The position numbers were made by a program, and so were the translations under genes. The notes below the pieces were generated by a model. That model was not told the DNA's origin and ran no database searches. It was given only the letters and a program-made list of their open reading frames with translations. A stretch of 43,160 nucleotides of DNA. Source: Acidimicrobiales bacterium (GTDB lineage Bacteria; Actinomycetota; Acidimicrobiia; Acidimicrobiales; VFJN01). The DNA lies in NCBI GenBank assembly GCA_035707385.1, contig DASSUD010000440.1, positions 1 to 43,160 of the forward strand, in the 5' to 3' direction. Shown here in pieces: positions 17,480 through 39,185 of the stretch (its first letter is position 1; each line of letters opens with the position of its first letter).

Positions 17480-17500
17480 GCGCGCGGTCGACGGGGCAGT

Positions 17501-18928
17501 TCAACGACCTGACACGGCGCGGTCGAGCGCCATCACCGCGTCGACGAAGCACGTCAGAGGCGCCTCCGCGACGCCGGCGCCGACCTGCCCGGCACCGGCC
17601 GACGCGTGGAGGACGCCGGTGGTGATCTTGGGCGTGATGCCCAGCTCGGCGACACGGCGCGCGTCAACGCCGAGGGGCGTGCCCCGGAGGTCGAGGAGGG
17701 GGATGCGCAGGCGGGTGCTGCGACCGGCGCAGACGAGGTCGAGCTCCTCGGTGGTCGCGCGCGCGTCGGCCATCGTCCCGCCGACGAAGGCGGCCACGGC
17801 CGGCGAGCCGGCGGCGGCCGCGGCGCCGAGGCCAACGAGCTCGAGCACCGCGCTGTCGCCGACGTCGGGCGCGGCGGCTTCGGGGCCGTAGTCCGCGTAG
17901 TACAGCGCCTGGCCGACGGCGGGTGCGGGCGCCAGATGCCAGCTCGGCGACCCGGCGAGGCCCACGGCGAACTCCGTGCCGTTGCGCGTCATGGTGGTGA
18001 CGATCGACGAGTGGGGGACGTCCATCGCCCAGCCGGTCAACGCCCGGGCCGCCGCCATCGCGACGTTCAGGAAGAAGAGGTGGTTGCCGGCCAGGAAGCG
18101 AGCGAGGTCGGTACGCCGCGGATCGTCGAGCCCCGCCAGATGGGGGAGCAGGTCGCGCAGCATCAGGTTGGTGCTCCCCTGCAGACGGATGTGCACGTCA
18201 TCGCCCATGTGCAGGCCCTGTGCCGCGATGTTCATGACGTCGAGGGGCCCGTGCGAGCGGACGGCGTCGTCGAGGAGCGGTCCGGCGACCGCAGCCAGGA
18301 ATCGCAGCCGGTCGATCGCGGCGCGCGTGTCGCGGCCGAACCATGCGGTGTCGCCCGGTCCCTGGTTCAGCGGCGCGAACGCACGGTTACCGCCGGCCGC
18401 GTTCTCGACGATCCAGACCGGCTGCGACGGCCCGAAGGCCGTGACCATGGGCACGCACGCGTCATGCCGGTTCGCCGGCTCGAGCCCGACCCGGCCGCCC
18501 GCGAGCAGCCGGTCGGCACTATCCGTCTCGTCGGCCCAGCCCTCGGCGACCACGGCGGCGCGCATCGAGCGGCGCAGGGGATCGATGGCGTCGGCATAGT
18601 CGATGGGTGGCCCGCAGTGGAGAAGTGTCGTGCCCTCGAAACCGGGCACGACATCTGCGGCGGTGCGGACGCCGACGGCGCGGGGGGCGCCGCTGTCGAG
18701 GCGCCTGAGGACCTCGGCGTTGGCCGCGTCCACCGCGGCGGACATCGGCCCGTAGAGGCGAGCCAGGGCAGCGACGACGTCGGGATCGCCCCCGCCGGGG
18801 ATCCGCCAGTCGACGTCGACCACCTCGAAGCCCTGCCGGGCGACCGCGTCCGCGAACAGCGACAGCCCGATGTTGACGACCCGTGCCCTCTCGGGCAGCG
18901 ACGGGGCGTCGTCGCCGCCGGTGGTCAC
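17501..18928 (-). CDS. DUF1116 family protein (YlbE-like)
   Basis: 475 aa. VNIGLSLFADAV..QG..VV.VDWRIPGGGD, LLHCGPPI, MVTAFGPSQPVWIVENAAGGN and AQGLHMGDDVH resemble the E. coli YlbE family. Confidence 0.75.
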   Translation of the reverse strand: MTTGGDDAPSLPERARVVNIGLSLFADAVARQGFEVVDVDWRIPGGGDPDVVAALARLYGPMSAAVDAANAEVLRRLDSGAPRAVGVRTAADVVPGFEGTTLLHCGPPIDYADAIDPLRRSMRAAVVAEGWADETDSADRLLAGGRVGLEPANRHDACVPMVTAFGPSQPVWIVENAAGGNRAFAPLNQGPGDTAWFGRDTRAAIDRLRFLAAVAGPLLDDAVRSHGPLDVMNIAAQGLHMGDDVHIRLQGSTNLMLRDLLPHLAGLDDPRRTDLARFLAGNHLFFLNVAMAAARALTGWAMDVPHSSIVTTMTRNGTEFAVGLAGSPSWHLAPAPAVGQALYYADYGPEAAAPDVGDSAVLELVGLGAAAAAGSPAVAAFVGGTMADARATTEELDLVCAGRSTRLRIPLLDLRGTPLGVDARRVAELGITPKITTGVLHASAGAGQVGAGVAEAPLTCFVDAVMALDRAVSGR

Positions 18929-20412
18929 TCCGATGGCTCCTCGATCACACGCCGGGCCTCGGCGACGAGGCTGTGCTCGGCGCGATCGATCGTGTCGAGG
19001 CGGTCTCGCGCCGCTCCCGCCAACGCGTCCGTGTCGGCGGCGGTGTCGGCGAGCATCGCCTCCATCGGTTCCGGCGCCGCGCCGCCCAACGCCACGCGCG
19101 TGGCGACGATCGCCGCCGGATCGAGGGCGTCGGCGAGCGTCGCGGCATCGATGGCGAGGGGCCGGCCGAGCTGCTCGACGGCGATCTCGTCGAGCAGCGT
19201 CGGGTTGAGGTCGCCGGCGGTGCCGCCGTCCGCGGCGAGACGACGCACCGCGCTGCCGACGACCTGGTATGCGGTCCGGTAGTCGACTCCGCAGGCCACC
19301 ATCAGCTGCTCGGCGACGTCGGTCGCCTGGCTGAAGCCGGTCGCGAGCGCCTCGCGTAGCCGGGCCTCGTTCATGGTCAGGGTGGACACCACACCGGCCG
19401 TGAGCTCGGTCATGCGCCGGGCGTGGTCGAGGGCGCCGGGGATCTCACCGTAGGCGAAGATCAGATTGTCGCTCCGGGCGGAGGGGCTCTTCTGCACCGC
19501 CAGCACTCCGGCGACGTGCCCGATCAGCACGCCCGTCGTGCCCCGGATCACCGACAGCGCGTACGGGTTGCGCTTCTGCGGCATCAGCACGCTGGCGCGG
19601 GTGTACTCCTCGGCGAGCTCGGCGTAGTCGAACTCGGAGCTGGCCCAGATCTCCAGGTCCTCGGCGAGCGAGGTCTGCGTGAGGGCCAGGCTCGCGAGGG
19701 TCGATGCCAGCTGGACCAGGCCGTCGACCTGCCACATGGCGTCGCGGGTGTTGACGATCACCGACGCGAAGCCGAGCCGGGCGGCGACGGCGCCGCGGTC
19801 GCCCTGGAGCCGGGTGCCGTTGACGCAACCGGCGCCGGCAGGGCTGGCGTTGAGCCAGTCGAACACCTCGAGGAGCCGGTGGCCGTCGCGGATCACGGGA
19901 TAGGCGAACGACAGCAGGTAGTGCCCGACGGTCGAGGGTTGGGCGTGCTGGAGGTAGGTCTGGTCGGCGAACAGCGTGTCCCGGTACTGGCCTGCCCGGT
20001 CCGTGAGCGCCCGCGCCAACGCCGTCGCCGCGAGCACCAACTCCGCGGTGCGGCGCCGGAGGTGCAACCGGAAGGCCAGGCGGGTCGCCTCGCGCCGGGG
20101 ACGACCGGCGTGCAGCCATCCGGCCGTCGAGCCGATCTGCGCGGCGAACGCGCGCTCGCGGGAGTTGTACGGCTCGCCGTCCCGGGGGTCGTAGCCGATC
20201 GAGTCCATCGACGCGTCCAGGATCACCCGGAGCAGGGCCACCGCAGCGGGGCGGGGGATGATCCCGCGTTCGAGGAGGTCGAGCACATGGGCGACGTCGG
20301 CCTGGTTGAGCCCATCGTGGAGCGTGGCGGCTCCCCGTGACTCGTAGCCGAACCCGGCGCCGACGAGCTCCGGCGCCGGGCCCGGGGTGCTGGCGCCCCC
20401 CGGGCGGGTCAT
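18925..20412 (-). CDS. aspartase/fumarase-superfamily lyase, argininosuccinate-lyase-like paralogue
   Basis: 495 aa. TYLQHAQPSTVGH and the signature loop ASVLMPQKRNPYA (canonical is GSSxMPQKKNP). The start ATG overlaps the upstream stop (ATGA at 20409-20412). Confidence 0.85.
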   Translation of the reverse strand: MTRPGGASTPGPAPELVGAGFGYESRGAATLHDGLNQADVAHVLDLLERGIIPRPAAVALLRVILDASMDSIGYDPRDGEPYNSRERAFAAQIGSTAGWLHAGRPRREATRLAFRLHLRRRTAELVLAATALARALTDRAGQYRDTLFADQTYLQHAQPSTVGHYLLSFAYPVIRDGHRLLEVFDWLNASPAGAGCVNGTRLQGDRGAVAARLGFASVIVNTRDAMWQVDGLVQLASTLASLALTQTSLAEDLEIWASSEFDYAELAEEYTRASVLMPQKRNPYALSVIRGTTGVLIGHVAGVLAVQKSPSARSDNLIFAYGEIPGALDHARRMTELTAGVVSTLTMNEARLREALATGFSQATDVAEQLMVACGVDYRTAYQVVGSAVRRLAADGGTAGDLNPTLLDEIAVEQLGRPLAIDAATLADALDPAAIVATRVALGGAAPEPMEAMLADTAADTDALAGAARDRLDTIDRAEHSLVAEARRVIEEPSE

Positions 20413-21356
20413 CCGTGCCCGATCCCCATGGCCTCGCCGACGCAGCCCAGCCAGCCGCCGGTGTGCCACAGGACGAGCGGCCCGTCGAGCGACCCGAGGA
20501 CGGCGACCGCGCGGGCGACATACGTCGTGTCCGCCATGATGCCCTCGGTACGGAGGGCGAGGCGGGCTGCGTCGCACGTCGTCCGGTCGGCCCGGCCGAA
20601 GCCGGCGCCCAGGCCATCGAGCAGGCGCAGGCGACCGATGTCCGGACCACCAGCGCCCAGGGCGGTGGCCGCTTCGCAGGCCAGGCGGATCACTTCGCGG
20701 CGGGTCTCGGCCAGTGGGCGGCTCACGGCCACGCCGACGAGGGTGCCGGGGACGCCGGAGCCCGCCCACCCGGCGAGCAGCCCGGCGACCGTGCCGCCGG
20801 AGCCGACCGCCACCACCACGTGGGCCGGCCGGAACGTCAGCTGGGCGGCGAGCTCCTCTGCCGCGAGCGCGTACGCCGTCGCACCCACCCCGGAGGCGGC
20901 CCCGCGGGGCACGATGTACGGGTGGTGCCCGCGCCGGCGGAGCCGGTCGGCGGCCGCAGCCGCATGCTCGGGTGTGGACGCGCGACCGGGATCGCCGGTG
21001 AAGCGGACTTGGGCACCGAACATCCGCATCAGCGCGAGGTTCGGGTGGGGCGCCGCCGGCTCGCTGCCGTGCAGGACGAGGGTGCAGCGGAGCCCGGCCA
21101 CCGCGGCCGCGGCCGCCAGTGCCGAGCACAGGTTGGAGGCCGGCCCGCCGCAGCCCACGACGTGGTCGCACCGTTGGTCGATCGCCTCCGCCAGGAGCAC
21201 CTCCAGGACGCGCACCTTGTTGCCACCGAGCGCGAAGCCCGTCATGTCGTCGCGCTTGATCCAGACCTCGCGATCGAGCGCCGCGCTCAGCCGCGGGGCG
21301 TGAACGAGCGGCGTGGGGAGCACGGCCAGCGGCAAGCGCGTCGGCGGCGTCAGCAC
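20409..21356 (-). CDS. fold-type II PLP-dependent enzyme, D-cysteine desulfhydrase / ACC deaminase family
   Basis: 315 aa. IKRDDMTGFALGGNKVRVLE (PLP lysine motif), and a Gly-rich VVAVGSGGTVAGL phosphate-binding loop. Confidence 0.85.
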   Translation of the reverse strand: MLTPPTRLPLAVLPTPLVHAPRLSAALDREVWIKRDDMTGFALGGNKVRVLEVLLAEAIDQRCDHVVGCGGPASNLCSALAAAAAVAGLRCTLVLHGSEPAAPHPNLALMRMFGAQVRFTGDPGRASTPEHAAAAADRLRRRGHHPYIVPRGAASGVGATAYALAAEELAAQLTFRPAHVVVAVGSGGTVAGLLAGWAGSGVPGTLVGVAVSRPLAETRREVIRLACEAATALGAGGPDIGRLRLLDGLGAGFGRADRTTCDAARLALRTEGIMADTTYVARAVAVLGSLDGPLVLWHTGGWLGCVGEAMGIGHG

Positions 21357-22693
21357 GAGTCCTCCCCGAGGCGGCCGAGGACGGAGCGCACCGCGGCGGT
21401 GTCACCGGGAGCGATCGGGTCCGCGACCGCCGACTCCGCCTCGGCCCGGGTCATCAGGCCGGCTGCCTCGAGCGCGTCGGCCGCAGACCGACGGTCGCGC
21501 CCCGCTGCGCCGAGGGCGTCCCGGAGCGCAGCCTGGGCCCGGTGCTTGCCCAGGCGGCCGGAGAGCATGCCGAGGATCCGCTCGGACGCCAGCAGGCCCT
21601 CTGCCGCACCCACGTTCGCGCTCATCCGGTCGGCGTCGACTTCGAGCCCCTCGACACAGGTGATGGCGAGGCGCAGCGAGGCCGAGGTCAGGAGGCACAC
21701 CTCCGGGAGCGCCACCCACTCGGCCTTCCAGGCACGGCCGTCGCGCTCGTGGATCTGGACCTGGCCCTCCAGCAGCACCAGCGCGTGGGCGCGGGTGAGG
21801 CGGGCCAACGTGTCGAGGTGCTCGCTCGACTCCGGGTTCCGCTTGTGCGGCATCATGATGCTGCCGACGACGTCGACGGGGACCGCCTCCCGCAGCTCGC
21901 CGATCTCGGGTCGCTGCAGTTCCATCACCTCGTTGCCGACGCGTGCGAGCGTCCCGGTGATCCCGGTCATCACCGCGGCGAACTCGGAGATCCGGTCGCG
22001 GCTGGTGAACCACGCGATGCCCGGGTCCGCGAGGCCGAGCCGCTCCGCGAACCGGGCCCGCAGCGCTGGCCCGACCTCGCCGTAGAACCCGAGCGTGCCG
22101 ACCGCCCCGCCGAGCTGCACGGTCGACCAGCGGGGCCGGCCCTCGTGCAGGCGTTCCCGGTGACGCCCGAGCTCGTCGGCCCAGGTGGCGAGCTTGAACG
22201 CGAAGGAGATCGGTGCGCCGGGCTGGGCGTGGGTCCGGCCGGGCATCACGGTGCGCTCATGCCGGGCTGCGAGGCTGGTGACCGCCCCGACGAGCCGGCG
22301 CACGTCCCGGTCGAGGAGGTCACCGACGTCGCGCATCGTCAGAGCGAACCAGGTGTCGGTCAGATCCTGCACCGTTGCGCCGTAGTACACGTGCTCGGCG
22401 ACGTCGTCCGGCAGGATCCTCTGGAGCGCCCGGATCAGGCCCAGCGTGGAGTGCGCGGTGCGGCGGGTCTCCTCGGCCAGGTAGTCGAGGTCGAGGTTGT
22501 CGACCCGCGCCAGCTCGGCGATCGTCTCGGCCGACGACGGGGGAACCACGGCGAGGTCGGCTTGCGCCGCCGCCAACGCGACCAGGATGTCGAGCCACTG
22601 CTGCCAGCGCGCCCGTTCGTCGAACAGGGCGTGCGTCTCGTCGGTCGCCCACAGGTGCGCGTAGGCGGCGCTGTCGGTCAGGCGGGCACCCAT
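21350..22693 (-). CDS. aspartase/fumarase-superfamily lyase, adenylosuccinate lyase / carboxymuconate cycloisomerase-like paralogue
   Basis: 447 aa. GATVQDLTDT, MPGRTHAQPGAPISF, and the signature loop VGSIMMPHKRNPESSE (canonical is GSSAMPHKRNP). An alternative ATG lies at 22705. Confidence 0.85.
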   Translation of the reverse strand: MGARLTDSAAYAHLWATDETHALFDERARWQQWLDILVALAAAQADLAVVPPSSAETIAELARVDNLDLDYLAEETRRTAHSTLGLIRALQRILPDDVAEHVYYGATVQDLTDTWFALTMRDVGDLLDRDVRRLVGAVTSLAARHERTVMPGRTHAQPGAPISFAFKLATWADELGRHRERLHEGRPRWSTVQLGGAVGTLGFYGEVGPALRARFAERLGLADPGIAWFTSRDRISEFAAVMTGITGTLARVGNEVMELQRPEIGELREAVPVDVVGSIMMPHKRNPESSEHLDTLARLTRAHALVLLEGQVQIHERDGRAWKAEWVALPEVCLLTSASLRLAITCVEGLEVDADRMSANVGAAEGLLASERILGMLSGRLGKHRAQAALRDALGAAGRDRRSAADALEAAGLMTRAEAESAVADPIAPGDTAAVRSVLGRLGEDSC

Positions 22694-23547
22694 GCCGGGT
22701 CGCATCGACGTGCCAGCGTGGCGAGGGCCTGCCTGACCTGCTCGAGGCTCGCACCCCAGGGAACCACGGCGACGTCCCCGTCGATCTCGGTGTGGTCTTC
22801 GAGGAGGCAGCACTTGGTGAGCAGGGGCCCGGGTCCCGACGCCAGGGCCCTCGGGCAGGTATCGGGACCGGAGGCGCCGCGCCCGTAGAACCAGTGATGG
22901 AGCTGGCGGGACCGGGCGCACCCGAGCAGGGTCCAGTCACGGTCGGCGGGGCGCTCGTCGAGGTAGTGCACCTCCCGGTCCTCGAGCCGGATGCCCGCCC
23001 CGCGACACGGCAGCAACACCACGGCGGCATCCCCGGCGAGCGATTCCAGCTCGACCAGCTCGGGTTCGAGCACCATCGGTGGCAGGTCCTCGGCGAGGTC
23101 GAGGACCCGCTGCGCCTGGTCCAGCAGCTTGGGGGGATGCGGCGGCACCACCTCGTACACCCGGACCCGCACCGGGTCGGGATCGAGCAGGAAGCTCACG
23201 TGCGAGTACCGGCCCTCGACGACGACGGCTCGCGCCCCGGGTTGCCCGATGGCGACCTTCGCCAGTTGCGAGGGCACGCCCGTGTCGATGTCGGGAATGC
23301 GCAGGTATGCGGTCTCGGCCGGTAGCGCCAGCACCTCCACTGACGCAGCCGGCGAGAAGAGCGGTTCCGGGTCGGCAGGCTCGACGCCAACGAGGGCGGT
23401 GGCGTCGCCGTTGCGCACGACGATGTAGCGGGTGCGCCGGTAGCACTCCCGTCCCAGGAAGTGTTCGATCAGGCGGTCGGCCGTCAGCGGAACCTCGACC
23501 CGCGCGACCGAGACCTCCCGGTAGGCGCGTGGCCTCCGGTTCGTCAT
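22678..23547 (-). CDS. hypothetical protein (289 aa), operon-embedded orphan
   Basis: The ATG overlaps the ComA-like stop (ATGA at 23544-23547), and the 3' end overlaps the next start. Protein-like composition. No motif recognised. Confidence 0.6.
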   Translation of the reverse strand: MTNRRPRAYREVSVARVEVPLTADRLIEHFLGRECYRRTRYIVVRNGDATALVGVEPADPEPLFSPAASVEVLALPAETAYLRIPDIDTGVPSQLAKVAIGQPGARAVVVEGRYSHVSFLLDPDPVRVRVYEVVPPHPPKLLDQAQRVLDLAEDLPPMVLEPELVELESLAGDAAVVLLPCRGAGIRLEDREVHYLDERPADRDWTLLGCARSRQLHHWFYGRGASGPDTCPRALASGPGPLLTKCCLLEDHTEIDGDVAVVPWGASLEQVRQALATLARRCDPAWVPA

Positions 23548-24344
23548 GCGCTCGGAACTCCGCCCGCCTGCGTCCCGGACGCGACGGCGTGGAGGGCGAG
23601 CGTCGTGTCGGCCCGGAGGCCGAGCCGGAGCGCCTCCAGCCCCATCGCCTCGAGCGGCGCCACATTCGCCAGGTTGACGTCGGGGCCGATGCGGCGGATC
23701 AGCCACGCCTGCTGGTGCCGGTGGGGCGCCTCGAAGATGAGGTGGTGAGCGCCGACCCCGTCGACGAGGGCATCGACGACCTCGCCCCGGACCGAGCCGT
23801 CGGCCGCGTAGAGGCCGACCACGCCGCTCTCCCGTCCTTCGGTGAGCACTGCGGTGGCCCCGGCCTCCAGATCGGCACGCGCGAGCTCGACCCAGGTCCC
23901 CGGCGTGAGCACGGACGTCGGGTCCTTCCTCCCCACTTCGGAGACGACGGCGAACATGGAGGCCGCCCTGCGGATGAGGCCGGCCTTGGCGTCCTCTCCC
24001 AGGAGGCCGAGTCCATCGCTCACCTCGACCTGCGTGAACCCGCACTCGGCCGCCCAGTCGAGGCACTCCTCGGCGCAGCCCTGGAGGGCGGCGAGCTCGA
24101 GCAGCGTGCCTCCCGGGCAGCCGATGACGTCATGGCGCCGAAGGAGGCTGAGCTTGGCGTCGAGCGTGGCGTCGAGATAGGCGCTGCCCCAGCCGAACTT
24201 CCACACGTCGATGTGTGCGGCGGCCGAGTCCAGGATGGCGCGCACGTCCGGCAGGGGCAGGCCGGCGTCGATCACACAGGACAAGCCCTGGCGGCGAGGC
24301 TTGCGGGACCGGTCGGGCAGGCGTAGGAATGCCGCCGCAGGCAT
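23544..24344 (-). CDS. (2R)-phospho-3-sulfolactate synthase (ComA) family protein
   Basis: 266 aa. AFLRLPDRSRKPRRQGLSCVIDAGLPL...IDVWKFGWGSAYL...VEVSDG matches the ComA family N-terminal and barrel motifs. Confidence 0.8.
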   Translation of the reverse strand: MPAAAFLRLPDRSRKPRRQGLSCVIDAGLPLPDVRAILDSAAAHIDVWKFGWGSAYLDATLDAKLSLLRRHDVIGCPGGTLLELAALQGCAEECLDWAAECGFTQVEVSDGLGLLGEDAKAGLIRRAASMFAVVSEVGRKDPTSVLTPGTWVELARADLEAGATAVLTEGRESGVVGLYAADGSVRGEVVDALVDGVGAHHLIFEAPHRHQQAWLIRRIGPDVNLANVAPLEAMGLEALRLGLRADTTLALHAVASGTQAGGVPSA

Positions 24345-24372
24345 CGTTCCGGATACTAGAGGATCATTCACT

Positions 24373-25320
24373 ATGGTGCAGGCCCTTGCCGAGCTAGTGG
24401 AGGCGCTGCGCTCGTCGTCGGGCTGGCAGGCCAAGGCTGACATCGCCGTCGTGCGGGCCGTGCTCGGGGAGAGCGACTGGGTGCGCGGCCCCGGGGACGA
24501 CGGGGCGGCGGTACGGGTGGGCGGCGAAGAGGTGATCGCTTGCGGGGAGGCGATCCTGCCGGCGTTCGTCGAACACGATCCGTACGGCGCCGGGGTGGCG
24601 GCGGTGCTCACCAACGTGAACGACGTGGCCGCCATGGGCGCAGTCCCTCTCGCCATCGTCGACACCGTCGTGGGCCCGCACGAGACCTGCCGCGCCGTGC
24701 TGGAGGGGATGCATTTCGCGTCTGCGCTCTACGACGTGCCGGTCGTGGGCGGTCATCTGACGAAGAGCGCTGATCGCGTCGCGCTGTCGGCGTTCGCCCT
24801 CGGACGCTGCCCTGGCCGTCCCCTGTCGGCGACACGCGTCGCCCCCGGGCAGACGTTGGCGCTCGTCGTGTGCCTCGAGGGCAGGATGCGGCGCGACTTC
24901 CCGTTCTTCCCGTCGTTCGACGAGCGCGGGAGCAGGCTCGCCGGCGACGTGCGCCTGCTCGCGGACCTCGCGGCCGGCGGAGTCGTCGAGGCGGCCAAGG
25001 ACGTGAGCATGGCCGGGCTCTTCGGGTCGATGGCGATGTTGCTGGAGGCCACCCGCTGCGGGGCATCGATCCCGGTCGCGGCAGTCCCGGTACCCCCCGG
25101 GATCGACTTCGGCGCCTGGTCGCTGTGCTTCCCGTGCTTCGCGTTCCTGGTCACGATGGCGCCCGAGAACGAGGCCCGTTGCCGCGACGCCGTGGAGCGA
25201 CGCGGGCTGGCCTACGCGACGCTGGCCACCGTCGACGGGTCGGGCGTGCTCGAGCTGGTCGACGGAGGGGACGCGGCGATGCTCGTGGACCTGAACGCCG
25301 ACGGGATCACCGGGCTGTAG
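24373..25320 (+). CDS. AIR synthase-related protein (sll0787-like, PurM/ThiL/HypE superfamily)
   Basis: 315 aa. GDDGAAV...ACGEAI...DPYGAGVAAVLTNVNDVAAMGA...VVGGH pattern. GAGGA RBS 9 nt upstream of the ATG. Confidence 0.75.
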   Translation: MVQALAELVEALRSSSGWQAKADIAVVRAVLGESDWVRGPGDDGAAVRVGGEEVIACGEAILPAFVEHDPYGAGVAAVLTNVNDVAAMGAVPLAIVDTVVGPHETCRAVLEGMHFASALYDVPVVGGHLTKSADRVALSAFALGRCPGRPLSATRVAPGQTLALVVCLEGRMRRDFPFFPSFDERGSRLAGDVRLLADLAAGGVVEAAKDVSMAGLFGSMAMLLEATRCGASIPVAAVPVPPGIDFGAWSLCFPCFAFLVTMAPENEARCRDAVERRGLAYATLATVDGSGVLELVDGGDAAMLVDLNADGITGL

Positions 25321-25783
25321 CGGTCAGGTCGATCGCCATCGGGACGTGGGGCACGCCGACGTAGATCTCCCTCTCCCCGGATACCGACCAGCCCAGGCGT
25401 TCGAAGTAGGGGACGTTGCGGGGCTGGATGTGCGCCGTCATCAGGCGTCCGCCCCGGTTCGCTGCCGTCGCGACCGCGAACCGTACGAGCGGCGCGCCGA
25501 GGCCCCGGCCCCGAGTGCCGAGGAGGACGGCGAGCCGATCGCCCTGCCAGTGGCCGGCATCATCGAGAGGGTAGAGGCGCACCGCGCCGCCGGCGACGCC
25601 GTCGCGGAACCCGAGCACCCTGATCGTGGCCGCCTCGTCGTCCCGGCCATCTCGATCCGAGCCCTGGAACAGGCGCTGCTCCCGGACGAAGACCGCCTCG
25701 CGGATCCGGTGGTGCTCGGCCAGCGTCCAGGCGTCGTCGGCCACGCGGCACTCGACGGTGGTGCGGTGCAGGACGTCAGCCAC
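25307..25783 (-). CDS. GNAT N-acetyltransferase, MSMEG_0567/Sll0786-like
   Basis: 158 aa. HHRIREAVFVREQRLF, GAVRLYPL, GDRLAVL...RGRGLGAPLVRFAV (acetyl-CoA loop). The GTG start overlaps the radical SAM stop by 8 nt. Confidence 0.8.
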   Translation of the reverse strand: MADVLHRTTVECRVADDAWTLAEHHRIREAVFVREQRLFQGSDRDGRDDEAATIRVLGFRDGVAGGAVRLYPLDDAGHWQGDRLAVLLGTRGRGLGAPLVRFAVATAANRGGRLMTAHIQPRNVPYFERLGWSVSGEREIYVGVPHVPMAIDLTATAR

Positions 25784-26954
25784 GCGCCGCGACGGGCTTG
25801 GGCCCGATCTGGAGGCGGTCCTGGACGGCGGCCATCGGCGAGCACGCCTGGCAGCGCGAGCACCCCGCCTTGGCCGTCTCCGCACCGAGGCCGCGCTCGG
25901 TCAGGTAGGGCGTCACGCGGCGCACGAGGCGCTCGACGTAGTCGTGCGCCGGCGGTGACCACTCGGCCATGAGGCTGCCGGCCACCGGCCGCAGCGGCAC
26001 CACGAACGGGTACACGCCCATGTCGGCCGCCCGCCGGCACCCTTCCACCGTCAGCTCCGGGTCCTCGCCCATGCCGAGGATCACGTAGGTGGTGACCTGC
26101 CCCTCGCCGAAGCGCGGCACGGCGCGCTCCCAGGTACGGAAGTAACCCTCGATGCCCGTGCGGGCCTTCGCGGGCGCCACGCGGGCGAGCACGGCGGGAT
26201 CGAACGACTCGACGTGGATCCCGACGGTGTCGACGCCGAGGTCGGCCACCCGGTCGATCACGTCGAGATCCTCGGGCGGTTCGAACTGCGTCTCGACGGG
26301 CAGCCCGCTCGCCTGCTTCACCGCCGCGGCGCACTGGGCGACGTACAGCGCGCCACGGTCGGGGGCGCGGGTGCTGCCGGTCGTGAGGGTCACGTCGACC
26401 GCGCCGTCGAGGTCGCGGGCGGCGACGGCCACCTCGGCGAGCTGCGCCGGGGTCTTCTTCGCCGTGGTGCGACCGGCATCCAGCGAGACCCCGATACCGC
26501 AGAAGGCGCACTGGTCGTCGTTGCCCCAGTAGGCGCACGTCTGGAGCACCGTGCTCGCCAGCGAGTCCAGGTGCAGCAGGGCGATCTTCCAGTAGGGGAT
26601 CCCGTCGGCGGTGGTGAGGTCGTAGCAGCGCGGCCGGGTTTGCGAGCGGGCGGGCGCAACCCACTGTCCGGCCTCGTAGATGCCGACCTCGCTGCCGTCG
26701 GTCCGCAGTTCGAAGGGCGACGAGGCCGTCCGGGCCGGGTCGGTGTCGAGCGTGACCGCGTAGTCGTCGACCCAGACCATGCCGACGTCGGACGGGCCGG
26801 CGCCCCCGGCCCGGCCCTCGGTCTGCACCTCCGTCCGCAATCCGTGGGCCTGCAAACGGAGGATGAGTTCGGCGGTGTGTCGCTCCAACGCTGCCTCCAC
26901 TCCCGTGGGGGACGTGTCGGATATTACGACGACCACGGCGACCGCGCCCACCAT
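25776..26954 (-). CDS. radical SAM protein, MSMEG_0568-like
   Basis: 392 aa from MVGAV. Cys triad CAYWGNDDQCAFCG, GRAGGAGPSD near the N-terminus, and a C-terminal CSRCQAC. Genomic pairing with the GNAT. The exact start is uncertain. Confidence 0.8.
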   Translation of the reverse strand: MVGAVAVVVVISDTSPTGVEAALERHTAELILRLQAHGLRTEVQTEGRAGGAGPSDVGMVWVDDYAVTLDTDPARTASSPFELRTDGSEVGIYEAGQWVAPARSQTRPRCYDLTTADGIPYWKIALLHLDSLASTVLQTCAYWGNDDQCAFCGIGVSLDAGRTTAKKTPAQLAEVAVAARDLDGAVDVTLTTGSTRAPDRGALYVAQCAAAVKQASGLPVETQFEPPEDLDVIDRVADLGVDTVGIHVESFDPAVLARVAPAKARTGIEGYFRTWERAVPRFGEGQVTTYVILGMGEDPELTVEGCRRAADMGVYPFVVPLRPVAGSLMAEWSPPAHDYVERLVRRVTPYLTERGLGAETAKAGCSRCQACSPMAAVQDRLQIGPKPVAARG

Positions 26955-26964
26955 AGAGGACGGG

Positions 26965-27582
26965 TCAGGAAACGTCCGCCTGGAGCTCCTCCGCGACCCG
27001 TTCCCATTCCGCGGCGGTGCCGGCCGTGTGGACCGCTGCACCCGGGTCGGTCCGCAGTTCGCCGGTCGTGAGATCGACTCGCACCGCGGTCACGAGCAGG
27101 GCGGGCGCCCCGGTGGCCTGATCGCCACCCACCTCGGTCAGGATGGCCCAGCCCGACCCGACGTGCACTCTCAGCTCCGGCACGCGCGGGCCGAGCGATT
27201 CGGCGTGGACATCGGTCCACCCTGCACCCGCTGCCCGGGCTCGGCCGATCGCGGCCAGCCTCGCCAGCCGCCGCTCCTCTCCTGCCAGTTCGCGATCCCG
27301 TGCCGCGGCTGCGGATCCGAAGATGTCGTCCGGGTCGAGGCCCTGCGCACTCGTGCCCGTCGCATCGCACGCCTCCGCCACTTGCTCGACCGCCCGCGCT
27401 TGGCAGGCGAGGAGGTCAGCGGCCGTGGTGGTCACCTCCCGCAACTGCTCGCAGGTCGCGGCGACCAGCACCAGGGCCCGCTGGTAGCCGTCGACGTTGG
27501 TCATCGCCAGGGGGTACAGGCGTGCCTCGGCGGCCCGCCACGACTGGCGGGCGCGCACGACGGCATCGTCGCTCATCGACAC
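26965..27582 (-). CDS. hypothetical protein (205 aa), first gene of the radical SAM/GNAT operon
   Basis: High GC3, 10-nt gap to the radical SAM start, no motif recognised. An alternative ATG lies at 27576. Confidence 0.55.
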   Translation of the reverse strand: MSMSDDAVVRARQSWRAAEARLYPLAMTNVDGYQRALVLVAATCEQLREVTTTAADLLACQARAVEQVAEACDATGTSAQGLDPDDIFGSAAAARDRELAGEERRLARLAAIGRARAAGAGWTDVHAESLGPRVPELRVHVGSGWAILTEVGGDQATGAPALLVTAVRVDLTTGELRTDPGAAVHTAGTAAEWERVAEELQADVS

Positions 27583-28632: not shown

Positions 28633-30168
28633 ATGGTCGCTGGAGTGCGCGTCCTGCGCGACCGCTATGTCGACTCGGTCCAGTTGCTGGCGATCACGCG
28701 CCGGATGCGTCAGTCTGAGGGCGTCGACTTCGCCGCTGCGCTGATGGGGACGCCGGCCAACCTGGAGGCGCTCGAGGAGCAAGGGGTCGGCGGCGAGGCG
28801 CTGTCGGCGGGCCCCAACGACCTCGTGCTCGCGGCGCGGGCAGGGGATGCCGCGCAGGCGGACGGCGCGCTCGAAGAAGCCGAGCAGGCGCTGTCTCCCA
28901 CGCGTTCGGCCGCGATCGCACCGGCTGAGCGCTCGCCCCGGTCCCTGCAGGCCGTCCTCGACGGGCCCGACGATCCGAACGTCGCCATCGTGTCGGTGGC
29001 CGGCGAGTACGCCGCGCTCGAAGCGCACAAGGCGCTCTCCGCCGGGCTGCACGTCCTGCTGTTCAGCGACAACGTGAGCATGGACGAGGAGATCGCGCTG
29101 AAGGAGCACGCCGCGGCTGTCGGCCGGCTGGTGATGGGGCCCGGCGCCGGTACCGCCAGCCTCGGGGGTTGCGGCCTCGGCTTCGCCAACGCCGTCGTGC
29201 CCGGGCGCGTCGGCGTGGTTGCTGCCGCCGGTACCGGGGCGCAGGAGGTCATGGCCCTGCTGGACCGCTGGGGCGAGGGGGTGTCCCACGTGATCGGCGT
29301 GGGCGGCCGCGACCTGTCCCGGCAGGTTTCCGGGCGCAGCGCGCGGCTGGCGATGCAGGCTCTCGCCCGTGACCCGGGCACGGACGTGATCGTGCTGGTG
29401 TCCAAACCCCCGTCTCCCGACGTCGCACGCGAGGTCGTGGCCGCGGGCGGGGCGAAGCCGGTGATCGCGGCGCTGATCGGACTGGCGCCCGACACGCCGG
29501 TGCCGGGGGCTGCGGCGGTGGCGACCACCCTCGAGGGCGCCGCGGCTCACGCCGTGACGCAACGCGGGGGATCCCCACCCTCCGACTGGTCGGAATGGCG
29601 GTCGCACATCGCCATCAGCCTCGTCGACCTCGATCCGGCGCGCCGCACCGTGCGAGGGCTCTTCTCGGGCGGGACGCTGTGCTACGAGGCGCAGACGCTG
29701 CTGCAGCAACGGCTCGGGGACGTGTGGTCGAACGCGCCGCTGGACGAGCGCCGCCAGGTGCCCGCGCCCGCGGGCGCCCACCTGTGCCTCGACCTCGGTG
29801 AGGAGGAGTACACGAAGGGACGGCCCCATCCGATGATCGACGCCGAGGCTCGCCTCGGGGTGCTGGCCGAGGCGGGCGACGATGACGAGGTGGCGGTGGT
29901 GCTGCTGGACGTGGTGCTGGGCTACGGGGGGCACGACGACCCGGCGTCGGTGCTCGCGCCCGCGTGCGCGGCCGTGGCACGGCCCGAGGGCCCCCGAGTC
30001 GTGGTCTACGTCCTCGGCACCGACGGGGATCCGCAAGGCCTGGCGCCTCAGCGCCGGGCGTTCGAAGAGGCCGGCTGCCTCGTGGCGCCCACGGCCGCCC
30101 GGGCTGCGCTCGGGGCCGCCGCGATCGCGGGGCGCCAGCCCCAGATCGTCGTGGCGGACCTGTCGTGA
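28633..30168 (+). CDS. FdrA family protein (succinyl-CoA-synthetase-alpha-like)
   Basis: 511 aa. N-terminal RDRYVDSVQLLAITRRM...AALMGTPANLEAL and CoA-ligase-like GPGAGTA.. / AAAGTGAQEV segments. Confidence 0.75.
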   Translation: MVAGVRVLRDRYVDSVQLLAITRRMRQSEGVDFAAALMGTPANLEALEEQGVGGEALSAGPNDLVLAARAGDAAQADGALEEAEQALSPTRSAAIAPAERSPRSLQAVLDGPDDPNVAIVSVAGEYAALEAHKALSAGLHVLLFSDNVSMDEEIALKEHAAAVGRLVMGPGAGTASLGGCGLGFANAVVPGRVGVVAAAGTGAQEVMALLDRWGEGVSHVIGVGGRDLSRQVSGRSARLAMQALARDPGTDVIVLVSKPPSPDVAREVVAAGGAKPVIAALIGLAPDTPVPGAAAVATTLEGAAAHAVTQRGGSPPSDWSEWRSHIAISLVDLDPARRTVRGLFSGGTLCYEAQTLLQQRLGDVWSNAPLDERRQVPAPAGAHLCLDLGEEEYTKGRPHPMIDAEARLGVLAEAGDDDEVAVVLLDVVLGYGGHDDPASVLAPACAAVARPEGPRVVVYVLGTDGDPQGLAPQRRAFEEAGCLVAPTAARAALGAAAIAGRQPQIVVADLS

Positions 30169-31319
30169 GACCGGTCGGGCTGGTCACGTACTCCACCAAG
30201 CCGCGCGGCGGGGTGGTGCACCTGCTGGCGCTGGCCGAGGCGCTGGCGAGGCGCTCGTTCCCTGTCGAGGTCATCGCCCTCGGCGATGAGAAGGTCGGGT
30301 TCTATCGCCCAGTCGCGGTGCCGTGCTCCTTCGTCGCCGCCCCTGAGCCGGCCCCCGAGCTCGAGGCGAGGGTGTTCGCTGCGATCGATGCGCTGGCGGC
30401 GGGGCTGGGGGCGCGAGCGGGAGCGCTGCCCCCGGTGCTGCACGTGCAGGACTGCATCGCCGCCCGGGCCGCCCTCCGCGTGCGCGATGCGGGCGCGCCT
30501 TTACGCGTCGTGCGCACGGTGCACCACGTCGACGACTTCACCACGCCCGCGCTGGTCGACTGCCAACGCAGGTCGATCCTCGATCCCGATCGCGTGCTGG
30601 TCGTCAGCCGGACCTGGCAGAAGCGGCTCGCCGACGAGTACGGCGTCAAGGCCGACGTGGTGACGAACGGCGTCGACGTCGATCGCTTCGCCGCGGCCCC
30701 GCCCCCGGGGGTCGCCGCTGCCCTGCGCGCCCGCGCCGGCGCGGAGGGGCGGTTCCTCATCCTGACGGTGGGCGGCATCGAGCCCCGCAAGGGCACCGAC
30801 CAGCTGTTCCGGGCGCTGTCGCGCCTGCGCCGGCGCTGGGCTCGTCCGCCGGTGCTCGCCATCATCGGCGGCCACTCGTTTCAGGACCACACCCCCTACC
30901 GCGAAGGTGTCATCGCCTCGATGGCGGACCTCGACCTCGAGTTCGGCCGGGATGTGGTGCTCGTGGGCACGGTGCCCGACGACGAGATCGCGGCCTGGTA
31001 CCACGCCGCCGACGCCTTCGCGTTCCCGTCCGTCACTGAGGGCTTCGGTCTCGTCGTGCTGGAGGCGATGGCCTCCGGCCTTCCGGTCGTGCTCACCCGC
31101 CTGCCGGTGTTCGCCGAGTACGTACGCTTCGGCGAGGACGCGCTCGCCGTGGCTCCGGGCGACGACGAGGGGCTCGCCGACGCGTTGGACGCCGTCGCCC
31201 GCGACGGCGACCTGCAGGCGACGCTGCGCCGGAGGGGGCGCGCCCTGGCGGCGAGGTTCAGTTGGGACGCTACGGCACAGCAGCACATCGCCATCTACGA
31301 CGACCTGCACACGAGCTGA
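30165..31319 (+). CDS. GT4 glycosyltransferase, MSMEG_0565-like
   Basis: 384 aa. YSTKPRGGVVHLLALAEAL near the N-terminus and the EGFGLVVLEAMASGLPVV GT-B (GT4) motif. The GTG start overlaps the FdrA stop (GTGA). Confidence 0.8.
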   Translation: MRPVGLVTYSTKPRGGVVHLLALAEALARRSFPVEVIALGDEKVGFYRPVAVPCSFVAAPEPAPELEARVFAAIDALAAGLGARAGALPPVLHVQDCIAARAALRVRDAGAPLRVVRTVHHVDDFTTPALVDCQRRSILDPDRVLVVSRTWQKRLADEYGVKADVVTNGVDVDRFAAAPPPGVAAALRARAGAEGRFLILTVGGIEPRKGTDQLFRALSRLRRRWARPPVLAIIGGHSFQDHTPYREGVIASMADLDLEFGRDVVLVGTVPDDEIAAWYHAADAFAFPSVTEGFGLVVLEAMASGLPVVLTRLPVFAEYVRFGEDALAVAPGDDEGLADALDAVARDGDLQATLRRRGRALAARFSWDATAQQHIAIYDDLHTS

Positions 31320-31595: not shown

Positions 31596-31637
31596 TACAA
31601 GGCAGATGTCGGGGGTTCGAGTCCCGCCGCGCCCACC
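31596..31637 (+). repeat. copy 2 of the tRNA-Val 3'-half repeat (diverged, attR-like junction between islands)
   Basis: tacaaggcagatgtcgggggttcgaGtcccGccgcgcccacc: 40/42 identical to 11845-11886. The two changes fall in the T-loop and T-stem, so it is not a functional tRNA. Confidence 0.8.
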
Positions 31638-32499: not shown

Positions 32500-35400
32500 A
32501 TGACGCTTTGGGACCAGCTCCCGGCTCCCGCGCAGAACAACGGGGCGGCCGAAGGCGTGCGGCCGCTGCTCGAGGCGCTCGACGCCAACCACGACGGGGT
32601 CGCCACCGAGGATGACGGCAGCTGGGACCGGTGGTCCGCATCGGGGACTTGGCCGACCCCGGTCAGCTTCGACCCCGGTGCTGGCGGGTTCACGGCCAAC
32701 GCGGTCAACGCGTCCACGCCGCTCGAGTTCCCCGACCCGGCCGTCGGGGTCGAGGTGGGGCTGCACCTCGACGCCGGCGGTAACCCCGACGGCGGCTGGC
32801 GGGTCACGCTGGAGGTCCCGAAGGTCATCGTGCGCCTCCCGTTCCTGCGGGGCGCCGACCTCGACGCCCAAGGCCAGCTGCGGGCCAACGGGCAGACCGT
32901 CCGGTTCACCCTTCCCGCGCTCCGGATCCGGGCCAAGCAGCTCACCGGCCAGTCCGTCGGCGTCGAGCTGCTGTCGGCCACGATCACCAACCCACCGGTC
33001 GATCAGCTCTACGAGCTGATCCGCATGGAACCGCCGTACGCGCTGATCGGGCCCAGCGACGTGGTCGGCTTCGCCTTCCGCACCGCCGTGCTGGACCTCA
33101 CCGGCGAGGCCGGCCCCGACGGCGTGCCGCCCGGCGCCCGGGCGATGCCGACCGACTGGCAGGGCCTGTGGCTGCCCGAGGCACGCCTGTTCGTCGCCCC
33201 AACCGGCCTTGACGGCCTGGCCGTCAGCGCCGGCGTGCGCGACCTCTGGATCGGGTTCGGGATTCACGCCGGGGTCACTGGCATCTTCGAGGCCGAGGTC
33301 GTCAACCGCGGCGGCACCCCGACGCTCAATGCCAGCTTCCGTACGGCTACAGGCCGCTGGATCCCGGCGCCGGCGACGGGCGCCGTCCTCCTGCCCGCCC
33401 AGACGACGCTGTTCGTCGACGCCCACGGCGGCATCGCCCCGGTTACCGTATCGATCGACATCGGCGGGACGGTCACCACCGCCGACCGCGTCGACGTGGC
33501 GGTGCCAGCCGCGGGCGCGGTGACCATCACGATCACCGCCACCGACGGGGGCGGCCACGTGACGACGCGCACGTTCGACGTGAGCCGCGAAGCCGCCACC
33601 CCGCCGGGCGGCTCCCCGGGGGCCATGACCACGCTGGCGCCCACCAGCACGGGAGCCCACCAAATGGTGCTGGTCTCTCAGACCACGACCGAAGCGGTCC
33701 TCAGGTTGGAACCGGAGGTGGCCGCCAACTGGAGCTGGCCGGGCGGCTCGGCGCCGAGTGCCACCAGCGCCACCGTGCCGATCGCGGCGGCCGGGGACTT
33801 CACGGTGACCGCCACGATCACAGCCGTGGCGCCGACAGTGATCGACGCCTTCTTCGTCTTCGACAAGCCAGCGGGGTGGGCTGACGACCTGGCCCGCGAC
33901 CGGTGGGCCAGCACCGGCGACAACATGCACACGGGACCGGCCGGCTCGCGCACCCGGCCGGGAAACTCGTCCACACTGGCGTCGACGCTGCCGGGCCGGC
34001 TCGCCCAGCTCGGCGCGGGCACCGCGCTCACCGTGCGGGGGTACGCCTCGTTCGAGGGCTTCGACGACGACCCACACCGGCAGCACAACGAGGCGCTCAG
34101 CGTCCGCCGCCGCGACGCGCTCATCGCGCTCTTGCGGGCCAGCGGGTTCACAAGCCTCAACGCCGCGACGTCGACCGGCCACGCAATGGCCCGCGACGGC
34201 ACGTCGATCGACGGCACGACACCAGCGCCACCCCCCGGCGACGCCCGCTGGTGGCGGGCCCGCGCCATTACCGCGACAACCGGCCCGGAAACGATCACCG
34301 GGCGGTTGCGGCGCCCCGCGCCACCGGCCACCACTAACACGGATCCCGCGCCACCGGCCACCGGCCGCCCCGACTGCTTCCGCCAGCTCGGCGTGCGGGT
34401 GGAGCTCCTACGGAGCACCTTCATCCGCGCCGAGCTGTACGGCCAGTTCGACATCGAGACGGCAGCGGAGACAGCGCTGCGCCACCGCGGGCAGCCGCCG
34501 CTGCGACAGGGGCCCCGCAACCCGATGGAGGGCGTGTGCGACTTCCTGGTCCGCCTGCGGGTCGCTGCCGACCGCGAGTCGTGGCTGGTCAGCGCCGAGC
34601 TGCGGGCAGCCGAGGGCGACCTCGACGGTCTGGCGATGATGGACGAGAGCCGGGCCAACCCGACCGCGCTCGACGTCCTTGGCGCGCTCGCCATCCTGGC
34701 TCCGCTCAGCTCGGCCACCGCGGAGCTGAGCCCAGCGGCGGGCACGCTTGTGGCGCTCGGCTCGCTCACGCTCGGCGGGGCGGGCCTCATCGACACGAAG
34801 CAGCTGATCCTCCGCGGCGCCGAGGTCGTTGTCAGCCAAGGGATCATCGCCGCGGACGGCAGCTCCACCGTCGACGCCCGCGGCACACAGGTGAGCGTGC
34901 TGCTCGACATCGAAACCGCTTTCACCTTCGACCTCGGCATCGTGCGGGTAGACCCGGCGCATCCGGTGACCACCCGCTACAAGGCCATCGGCGTCCGGTC
35001 CTCCTGGAACACGGCACCCGGTCCGGGCGGTCAGGTGGACTACCTGCCGATACCGGTCTTCGACCCCAGCCGCGGCTACACCCTCGACATCCCCACCGGT
35101 GCGCTGTCGGCCAGCCCGCCGCTCGACGAGCTGCTGCGGATCCTCGGCTTCCGGGTCAGCCGCGATAACCCGACCTTCGTCGAGGTGGAGGTCGGCCTCG
35201 GCGTCGACCTCGGGATCGTCGACGTCGAGAGCGTACGCGTCCGCGCCCGGATCGACGGGCCGCCGTTCGACATCACGCTGACCAAGCTCGTGGCATCGCT
35301 CGAGGTGCCGGGCGTGCTCCATGGCCGCGGTTCGCTCGAGTTCACGCCGCTGGGGTTCAAAGGCGCGTTCGACCTCACGGTGGTGCCCCTCAATATTCGC

Positions 35401-39183: not shown

Positions 39184-39185
39184 CC

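Follow-up and report, generated by a model that had tools for sequence, protein, structure and literature searches.

Nit1C signature genes joined to genes for a nitrile hydratase, predicted coenzyme M synthesis and an AllF/AllG-carbamate kinase module in an Acidimicrobiales bacterium

The Nit1C cluster is named nitBCDEFGH in Pseudomonas pseudoalcaligenes, sll0783-0787 in Synechocystis and MSMEG_0565-0572 in Mycolicibacterium smegmatis. In its canonical form it is induced by nitrogen starvation and takes part in the assimilation of cyanide and nitriles (PMC6039565, PMC5939895). Here we describe a variant of this cluster in a stretch of 43,160 nucleotides (the window) from an Acidimicrobiales bacterium (contig DASSUD010000440.1, assembly GCA_035707385.1). 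An earlier note, made from the sequence alone, had drawn attention to Nit1C-type genes at positions 24373-27582 that lacked a nitrilase. In the window, five Nit1C signature genes are joined at operon level to sets of genes for a nitrile hydratase (NHase), for coenzyme M, for AllF/AllG and carbamate kinase, and for a flavoprotein and an OsmC-like protein. We read the flagged genes as the centre of one functional unit, an NHase-type counterpart of Nit1C (called gpr in M. smegmatis), which would scavenge nitrogen from cyano compounds with the help of coenzyme M; we give this reading a probability of about 35%. This architecture is widely conserved and occurs well beyond the present genome.

The window is the entire contig of a metagenome-assembled genome (MAG), and the remainder of that genome lies outside its reach. 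Its G+C content is 72%, and since this is high, genes were called by third-position GC. Proteins were scored against the NCBIfam/TIGRFAM models with curated cutoffs and against Pfam, and the NHase beta, alpha and accessory proteins against NCBIfam only. The comparison covers 82 related loci, each with up to 10 kb of flank. Two of them are long contigs (L001 and L002), and the other 80 (L003-L082) come from a scan of GTDB species genomes with the MSMEG_0572-family (0572) protein of the window, which returned 221 relatives, of which the best 80 were used. The 46 loci of at least 18 kb are called full-length, and module counts among them are limited by the 10-kb flanks. The cluster on pCMU01 of Methylobacterium extorquens CM4 served as the canonical reference, and its proteins were run against the window by six-frame tblastn.

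The block comprises 20 genes in about 19 kb (12.5-31.3 kb), split into at least five transcription units. The five Nit1C signature genes are as follows:

24373-25320, plus strand: AIR-synthase-related (AIRS-like) protein of the PurM/HypE superfamily, sll0787-like, 315 amino acids (aa); TIGR04049 score 246.7
25307-25783, minus strand: MSMEG_0567/Sll0786-family GNAT, 158 aa, GTG start; TIGR04045 score 100.2, above the cutoff of 68.45
25776-26954, minus strand: MSMEG_0568-family radical SAM protein; TIGR04043 score 355.1, above the cutoff of 303.7
30165-31319, plus strand: MSMEG_0565-family GT4; TIGR04047 score 362.1, above the cutoff of 259.85
14616-15104, minus strand: MSMEG_0572/Sll0783-family protein; TIGR04044 score 206.3, above the cutoff of 109.85

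The first four genes lie where the earlier note had placed them and carry the motifs that it had named (GRAGGAGPSD and a CSRCQAC tail in the radical SAM protein, YSTKPRGGVVH in the GT4). Three of these four proteins exceed the cutoffs of TIGR04043, TIGR04045 and TIGR04047. The AIRS-like protein stays below the cutoff of TIGR04049 (321.3), yet this is its best family; it aligns with the model over its full length, and the next model, methanogenesis marker 2, reaches 163.7 bits. Its synteny with the GNAT and radical SAM genes supports the prediction that it is the orthologue of the canonical protein. In the PDB it matches HypE, ThiL and PurL/PurM, and its metagenomic relatives number thousands. 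For the GT4, MshA and BshA rank next after its own family in NCBIfam scoring. The hallmark set recognized by the earlier note is therefore genuine, and it was short of a fifth member, the 0572 gene. The stretch 26965-27582, which had been taken as part of the radical SAM gene, holds a separate conserved gene for a 203-aa protein, here called orf203. The 3' ends of the AIRS-like and GNAT genes overlap by 14 nucleotides (nt; 25307-25320) on opposite strands, as the earlier note had said, and the same convergent overlap occurs in L001 (41 nt) and L002 (20 nt). The GTG start of the GNAT gene overlaps the stop codon of the radical SAM gene by 8 nt.

The 0572 protein is extremely well conserved. Pfam finds DsrE in it with a score of 23.8, and the fold is DsrE-like. 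Alignment shows a single invariant cysteine, Cys115, which is kept even in the proteobacterial canonical homologue. Among the best 80 of the 221 relatives, the protein is 80-99% identical. This range holds across classes and phyla, and the neighbours of the protein range from 31 to 96% identity, which points to either an unusually strong constraint or a recent horizontal spread of that gene in particular. Sequence searches of the PDB with the 0572 protein and with the radical SAM protein gave no match. In the canonical cluster, NitB is encoded by the first gene of the operon and is the most conserved protein, with more than 90% identity (PMC11049912), so we infer that it is the 0572 family member. 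NitB and NitG are listed there as proteins of unknown function (PMC11049912), and the mechanism of Nit1C has been left open (PMC6039565).

The enzyme expected to act on the cyano group is a cobalt-type (Co-type) NHase, encoded by three genes of the same island:

12564-13226, plus strand: nitrile hydratase beta subunit; TIGR03888 score 195.7, cutoff 152.2
13223-13822, plus strand: Co-type nitrile hydratase alpha subunit with the VCTLCSC site; TIGR01323 score 291.9, cutoff 249.85
13885-14199, plus strand: nitrile hydratase accessory (activator) protein; TIGR03889 score 69.6, cutoff 46

The ATG of the alpha gene overlaps the stop codon of the beta gene. The best PDB matches of the alpha subunit are Co-type NHases (1v29, 290.8 bits), as against 162.6 bits for thiocyanate hydrolase. 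With all three genes above their cutoffs and the VCTLCSC site in place, the NHase reported by the earlier note is genuine. A nitrilase is absent from the block and from the adjoining sequence, also as claimed. Six-frame tblastn of the window with a Nit6803-family query gave only noise (best E = 0.51), no match at 1e-5 was found in the 82 related loci, and Pfam placed none of the called window genes, apart from the three NHase genes, which it did not cover, in CN_hydrolase. No amidase family was matched among the called cluster genes (by Pfam, except for the NHase trio, which matched its own NCBIfam families). Homologues of MSMEG_0570 and MSMEG_0569 gave no tblastn match in the window or in the 82 loci.

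The position of the NHase in the relatives argues for a replacement of one enzyme by another. The order on pCMU01 is 0572-nitrilase-rSAM-GNAT-AIRS-GT-0570-0569, where rSAM stands for the radical SAM gene, and the nitrilase occupies the slot directly after 0572. In 37 related loci the NHase beta and alpha genes follow the 0572 gene immediately, share its strand and so occupy the nitrilase slot of pCMU01, which strengthens the nitrilase-to-NHase replacement suggested by the earlier note. The window differs in that its NHase operon converges on the 0572 operon, the segment from the NHase to the OsmC gene being inverted. Nine related loci have no NHase and carry instead an Amidohydro_2 (PF04909) gene (L048 at 10489-11337, L051, L053, L058, L060, L065, L072, L074 and L076), and in Asanoa hainanensis this gene sits in the slot directly after 0572. 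The NHase and Amidohydro_2 are mutually exclusive among the sampled loci. The slot enzyme is thus swapped among three unrelated families (nitrilase, NHase and Amidohydro_2), and its DsrE-like partner stays highly conserved. It is probable that the NHase functionally replaces the nitrilase.

Some minor features were seen around this slot and at the cluster edges. In L058, from a Micromonosporaceae MAG, LarE-like and LarC-like open reading frames (ORFs), judged by eye from motifs, follow 0572 in the usual place of the NHase (10956-13833); LarE and LarC act in the synthesis of the nickel-pincer cofactor. Genes for the cobalt transporter proteins CbtB and CbtA follow the GT4 gene in L002 (16952-17899), which is consistent with a Co-type NHase. 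Proteins of the DJ-1/PfpI family are encoded at the cluster edge in L001 (17198-17872, Pfam match) and in L044 (17408-18154, by eye).

The second set of genes is an operon on the minus strand, which runs from 24344 down to 18925 in the order comA-xcbA-xcbD-xcbE-xcbC:

23544-24344, minus strand: ComA/XcbB phosphosulfolactate synthase, first gene of the operon; Pfam ComA 252.9, TIGR03849 score 227.8, cutoff 280
22678-23547, minus strand: XcbA-family protein (DUF7714); NF052538 score 314.2, cutoff 150; Pfam DUF7714 283.3
21350-22705, minus strand: XcbD-like 3-sulfopropionylcysteine synthase; NF052536 score 562.3, cutoff 600
20409-21356, minus strand: XcbE-like pyridoxal phosphate enzyme; NF052537 score 236.3, its best model, cutoff 450
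18925-20412, minus strand: XcbC-like enzyme of the aspartase/fumarase family (phosphosulfolactate to sulfoacrylate); NF052535 score 410.7, its best model, cutoff 575

The stop and start codons of successive genes overlap, and an Xcb or ComA model is the top family for all five proteins. The genes that the earlier note had called a sulfonate pathway are present and interleaved as it said, and they can be named more precisely: judged by their sequences, they are a complete bacterial coenzyme M (Xcb) pathway of five enzymes, and they are likely to make coenzyme M. In Xanthobacter, XcbA is a [2Fe-2S] reductase that forms coenzyme M (PMC9457059). The characterized enzymes XcbB-E of Xanthobacter autotrophicus Py2 are 39-44% identical to the window proteins (XcbC 40%, XcbE 40%, XcbD 44%). 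The pNOCA01 operon of Nocardioides JS614 has the same gene order and 43-50% identity (XcbC 46%, XcbE 43%, XcbD 50%, XcbA 49%). Unlike in Py2 and JS614, the operon of the window has no linkage to epoxyalkane:CoM transferase or alkene monooxygenase; it leads on to allG at one end and diverges from the AIRS-like gene at the other. No homologue of the transferase (EtnE) was found in the window or in the 82 loci. The start of comA is 28 bp from the divergent AIRS-like start in the window and 28-38 bp across the window, L001 and L002. This gap is too short for two conventional promoters, so that promoters within the neighbouring coding regions, or leaderless transcripts, are to be expected. The intergenic positions are 24344-24373 in the window, 9962-10001 in L001 and 9972-10001 in L002. 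A search of representatives with XcbA found 458 clusters at E <= 1e-3; the family is small, and the search gave no genomic context.

The third set resembles the allFGHK genes of Escherichia coli:

27656-28621, plus strand: carbamate kinase; NF009007 score 288.7, cutoff 266; TIGR00746 score 326.1
28633-30168, plus strand: AllF/FdrA-like subunit of an oxamate-carbamoyltransferase-type enzyme; NF004760 score 406.1, cutoff 433
17501-18928, minus strand: AllG-like subunit (DUF1116) of an oxamate-carbamoyltransferase-type enzyme; Pfam AllG 208

The carbamate kinase, AllF/FdrA and GT4 genes form one operon, in which the start of the GT4 gene overlaps the stop codon of allF by 4 nt, and the allG start overlaps the xcbC stop codon, likewise by 4 nt. 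The AllF orthologues in L001 and L002 carry Pfam HMA_AllF_N. The carbamate kinase of the earlier note is present, and we extend it to a module of carbamate kinase with an AllF/AllG transcarbamylase-like enzyme. In E. coli, AllFGH is a transcarbamylase that yields carbamoyl phosphate, and a catabolic carbamate kinase is encoded with it (PMC11326118). The window cluster shares the AllF-like, AllG-like and carbamate kinase proteins with allFGHK, and the genes for carbamate kinase and AllF are adjacent and co-directional. It differs in that allF and allG are in separate operons, each fused to another module, that AllH is absent, and that the cluster has no allantoin-pathway genes; the substrate is presumably not oxalurate for this last reason. 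AllH (PF11392) is present in 30 related loci. In relatives 79-82% identical it lies between allG and the XRE-family regulator gene (L001 at 2251-3045, and also in L010, L011, L014 and L017). The site of its loss in the window is 17479-17501, and the loss is clean there and in L003-L008. The module had also been considered as an adaptation specific to the NHase, an idea that is weakened by its retention in the Amidohydro_2 loci.

The remaining genes of the block are those of a thiol-redox set with its regulator, and orf203:

14189-14602, plus strand: OsmC-like protein, putative thiol peroxidase, start codon uncertain; Pfam OsmC 62.7
15413-16741, minus strand: CoA-disulfide reductase (CoADR)/NADH oxidase (Nox)-type flavoprotein of the pyridine-nucleotide-disulfide oxidoreductase family; TIGR03385 score 229.8, below the cutoff; Pfam Pyr_redox_2 137.8
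16841-17479, plus strand: XRE-family regulator with helix-turn-helix and cupin domains (PuuR-like), divergent from the flavoprotein gene
26965-27576, minus strand: orf203, conserved 203-aa protein, first gene of the orf203-rSAM-GNAT operon

The flavoprotein gene is upstream of the 0572 gene in the same operon. Its product has a single cysteine, in the motif SPCGIPY, and CoA-disulfide reductase is its top model. The orf203 protein has no Pfam or NCBIfam match. It has 107 homologues, none of them named, and is specific to this cluster type. Its AlphaFold2 model has a pLDDT of 93.6, yet no fold match was found in the PDB (best E = 0.2). An Rfam scan of the whole window for riboswitches returned a tRNA as the sole match.

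These sets recur together in other genomes. L001 and L002 hold the same gene set at 66-77% identity. The carriers of the best 80 relatives of the 0572 protein include Acidimicrobiia, Nonomuraea, Streptosporangium, Asanoa, Micromonosporaceae, Lapillicoccus, Euzebyaceae, Miltoncostaeaceae, Dormibacterota and others. Within 10 kb, the XRE regulator and the flavoprotein are encoded in all 46 full-length loci, OsmC in 41, the NHase in 40, AllF/AllG/carbamate kinase in 38, the Xcb genes in 33 and the Nit1C core genes in 25. The order of the modules varies among lineages, and the junctions between modules are kept. AllF is followed by GT4 in 21 of 21 loci, rSAM by GNAT in 21 of 21, carbamate kinase by AllF in 12 of 12, the flavoprotein by 0572 in 72 of 74, and XcbC by AllG in 33 of 38; the divergent pairs are kept as well (AIRS-like/comA in 20 of 22 loci, XRE regulator/flavoprotein in 65 of 69). 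The genes do lie in convergent and divergent units and are interleaved with the coenzyme M and carbamate kinase genes, as the earlier note had described. The block is very probably one conserved multi-module unit. Eight loci appeared to be minimal, with only the XRE, flavoprotein, 0572, NHase and OsmC genes within 10 kb. They are probably not truly minimal, two of them showing AllH at the far edge; other loci hold unrelated inserts of 1.5-6.7 kb.

Compared with the canonical pCMU01 proteins, identity is 56% for 0572, 42% for the radical SAM protein, 38% for the GNAT, 38% for the AIRS-like protein and 39% for the GT4. Both clusters have rSAM followed by GNAT, and both have a nitrile-acting enzyme directly after 0572 (in pCMU01 and in the 37 variant loci; in the window the NHase is convergent). 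In contrast to canonical Nit1C, the variant lacks the nitrilase, MSMEG_0570 and the MSMEG_0569 flavoprotein, and has a Co-type NHase or Amidohydro_2 and a CoADR-type flavoprotein instead. It adds OsmC, orf203, five coenzyme M genes, AllF/AllG (with or without AllH) and carbamate kinase. It is organized in at least five transcription units in the window instead of one co-directional operon, and its AIRS-like protein is the one below the family cutoff. The block falls outside Nit1C proper for want of the eponymous nitrilase and two further members, and it clearly shares with Nit1C five orthologous components and the logic of 0572 plus a hydrolase. The classical Co-type NHase operons of Pseudonocardia thermophila, Bacillus/Geobacillus and Rhodococcus rhodochrous J1 share the beta-alpha-accessory order and the CTLCSC site; in contrast to them, the window NHase has no adjacent amidase and lies within a Nit1C-like cluster near a DsrE-like protein. 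Our literature searches found no description that links Nit1C genes with an NHase, coenzyme M genes or AllF/AllG, and no link between ComA and NHase or between coenzyme M and Acidimicrobiia that describes this variant. The published contexts found were Nit1C with nitrilase, Xcb with alkene oxidisers and AllFGH with allantoin.

The unit would scavenge nitrogen from nitriles or from cyanide-derived adducts, like canonical Nit1C in cyanide-assimilating Pseudomonas; P. pseudoalcaligenes loses the ability to use cyanide or nitriles when nitB or nitC is mutated (PMC5939895). In the proposed route the NHase would hydrate the cyano group to an amide. As no amidase is encoded, the amide nitrogen should leave by another route, for which AllF/AllG and carbamate kinase are the sole candidates in the block, and the amide is proposed to be a carbamoyl group, X-CO-NH2, with X a thiol sulfur or a nitrogen. 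The substrate would then be X-C#N (X = S or N; # denotes the triple bond). The AllF/AllG enzyme may phosphorolyse the carbamoyl group to carbamoyl phosphate, which carbamate kinase would turn into NH3, CO2 and ATP. The thiol carrier or cofactor may be coenzyme M, which would be synthesized on the spot and held in its reduced form by the flavoprotein; Cys115 of the 0572 protein could take its place or act beside it as a carrier. With a cyano group on sulfur (coenzyme M thiocyanate or cyanylated Cys115), the NHase would give the S-carbamoyl compound, whose carbamoyl group the AllF/AllG-type enzyme would pass to phosphate. The CoADR-type reductase and the OsmC-type peroxidase could set the thiol redox state, and a disulfide could capture cyanide by cyanolysis. 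The rSAM-GNAT-AIRS-GT4-orf203 core may make a small molecule that is common to canonical Nit1C and needed for the hydrolytic step. HypE interconverts S-carbamoyl and S-cyano groups, and the route, if true, would be the HypF/HypE chemistry of the hydrogenase cyanide ligands in reverse. We propose this sequence from cyano over carbamoyl to carbamoyl phosphate, with coenzyme M as carrier, only tentatively. Equally tentative is the suggestion that coenzyme M is the thiol cofactor of cyano-group nitrogen salvage, a second bacterial role that is possibly wider than alkene metabolism.

Several points weigh against nitrogen scavenging with coenzyme M. The chemistry is inferred, as none of the Nit1C core enzymes has a known substrate or product, and the scheme leaves the role of the radical SAM, GNAT, GT4 and orf203 proteins unexplained. 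The gpr phenotype of M. smegmatis concerns peroxide resistance and NADPH, not nitriles (PMC6039565). Twenty loci, the window among them, do not have the NHase directly downstream of 0572. The E. coli oxamic transcarbamylase requires all three subunits AllF, AllG and AllH (PMC11326118), and AllH is absent from the window (tblastn) and from the closest relatives L003-L008. XcbC, XcbD, XcbE and ComA score below the strict ("exception") cutoffs of NCBIfam, although XcbA and the Pfam ComA match pass. The Nonomuraea loci have no carbamate kinase nearby. Among the nine Amidohydro_2 loci, the six whose flanks reach the module all keep AllF, and four keep carbamate kinase; the All module is therefore not simply a companion of the NHase.

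The same genes could serve the biosynthesis of a small molecule, be it a cofactor or a secondary metabolite. Its assembly would fall to the radical SAM, GNAT, AIRS-like and GT4 proteins, among which the AIRS-like one would form a nitrile as an ATP-dependent dehydratase of the HypE kind. Carbamate kinase and AllF/AllG would provide carbamoyl phosphate as the source of a carbamoyl or cyano group, a sulfonate intermediate or coenzyme M itself would enter the product, and the NHase (the nitrilase in canonical clusters) would tailor the nitrile to an amide or acid, like the toyocamycin nitrile hydratase. The PDB matches of the AIRS-like protein agree with this, as do the "biosynthetic process" tags that NCBI gives to the nitrilase, radical SAM, AIRS-like and GT4 proteins of the canonical cluster, though not to the GNAT. 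MshA and BshA, the runner-up models of the GT4, act in the biosynthesis of low-molecular-weight thiols, AllFGH was assayed in the carbamoylating direction (PMC11326118), and the close AIRS-like and comA starts suggest co-regulation. However, induction by nitrogen starvation and the need for the cluster in cyanide and nitrile assimilation fit scavenging better than a nitrogen-containing product. The block also has no transporter, resistance or scaffold-synthesis gene, and a hydrolytic enzyme swapped among three unrelated families would be unusual for specific tailoring. Biosynthesis is thus possible, at odds well short of even. It is rather unlikely that the block is mainly a coenzyme-M-based antioxidant system analogous to gpr, which confers peroxide resistance and raises the NADPH/NADP ratio (PMC6039565). 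Coenzyme M would be the low-molecular-weight thiol, with the flavoprotein reducing its disulfide, OsmC acting as peroxidase and the DsrE-like protein carrying sulfur, and the NHase and the All/carbamate kinase module would be accessory nitrogen salvage. This agrees with the single-cysteine SPCGIPY motif, as in CoADR/Nox-type enzymes, with the top model of the flavoprotein, with the frequency of OsmC and with the invariant cysteine of the DsrE-like 0572 protein. It leaves unexplained the radical SAM, AIRS-like, GNAT and GT4 genes and the fact that, in both cluster types, 0572 has its tightest partner in an enzyme that hydrolyses nitriles, and canonical clusters show the peroxide phenotype without coenzyme M genes.

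Three further explanations bear on the parts of the block. The NHase could be an unrelated neighbour and the true nitrilase partner encoded elsewhere in the genome, as the window is a single MAG contig in which the NHase operon is convergent and not co-directional with the 0572 operon. This is improbable: the NHase lies within 10 kb of 0572 in 40 of the 46 full-length loci, in several classes and phyla, and directly downstream in 37 loci, a nitrilase is found in none of the 82, and the NHase and Amidohydro_2 exclude each other in the slot. A chance mosaic of independent modules, gathered by island accretion and without a shared function, might be suspected from the place of the block in a tRNA-Val island beside a second, unrelated island. 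It is very improbable, since the gene set recurs in dozens of species-level genomes with differing flanks and shuffled order, with start/stop overlaps across modules (xcbC/allG and allF/GT4 in the window) and conserved adjacencies between them. Finally, the Xcb enzymes could serve alkene or epoxide metabolism, as in Xanthobacter, Nocardioides JS614 and Mycolicibacterium NBB4, and known alkene oxidisers or methanotrophs are the hosts of all the closest XcbD homologues found on plasmids. With no epoxyalkane:CoM transferase homologue in the window or the 82 loci, and with an operon that continues into allG and has the AIRS-like gene as its divergent partner, this classical role is hardly credible here.

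Nit1C is widespread and strongly induced by nitrogen starvation; Pseudomonas needs it to assimilate cyanide, and M. smegmatis to resist peroxide. The variant shows that its hydrolytic partner can be exchanged, and that what stays constant at the centre of the system is the DsrE-like protein paired with such an enzyme. Dozens of genomes of soil actinobacteria and Dormibacterota connect the core, at the level of operons, with coenzyme M biosynthesis and a carbamoyl-phosphate module. These findings narrow the hypotheses to thiol, cyano and carbamoyl chemistry. If coenzyme M is the thiol cofactor of cyano-group nitrogen salvage, this would give the first mechanistic handle on Nit1C, a puzzle of roughly 20 years. 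The variant points to a role of coenzyme M beyond alkene oxidation and methanogenesis. Cultured carriers are Nonomuraea sediminis, N. mangrovi, a Streptosporangium sp. and Asanoa hainanensis.

The block lies in a genomic island at a tRNA gene:

11811-11886, plus strand: tRNA-Val(TAC), found by ARAGORN; Rfam tRNA 72.6 bits
11845-11886, plus strand: left copy of an att-like direct repeat, the last 42 nt of tRNA-Val
31596-31637, plus strand: right copy of the tRNA-Val 3' end, 40/42 identical, right boundary of the island
42926-42967, direct repeat: third copy of the tRNA-Val 3' end

Only the first of the three copies belongs to an intact tRNA. The three copies indicate two islands in tandem at one tRNA: island A, of about 19.75 kb, holds the cluster, and island B spans about 11.3 kb. 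The closest relatives, at 87-89% nucleotide identity, are homologous to the window from about 12.49 kb and, in L002, up to 31.31 kb, and the flanks of the block differ in every genome compared. tRNA scans of 29 related loci found none adjoining tRNA-Val, so the insertion at this tRNA is specific to this genome. No integrase was found among the ORFs called in either island. The roughly 600 bp between tRNA-Val and the block (11887-12485) have no convincing ORF and no homology to related loci, and could be the remnant of an integration module.

Island B carries two giant ORFs on the plus strand, 32500-39183 (2227 aa) and 38925-42770 (1281 aa), which overlap by about 260 nt as called. They had been taken for nonribosomal peptide synthetase genes, which is wrong: they encode neither such a synthetase nor a polyketide synthase, and the sole Pfam match is DUF6603 in the 2227-aa ORF, the 1281-aa ORF having none. 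Just outside the island lie two genes whose longest ORFs overlap at their 5' ends, with the start codons uncertain. They encode a 2-thiouracil desulfurase (DUF523; 11248-11796, plus strand) and a full-length sigma-70-family sigma factor (10244-11389, minus strand).

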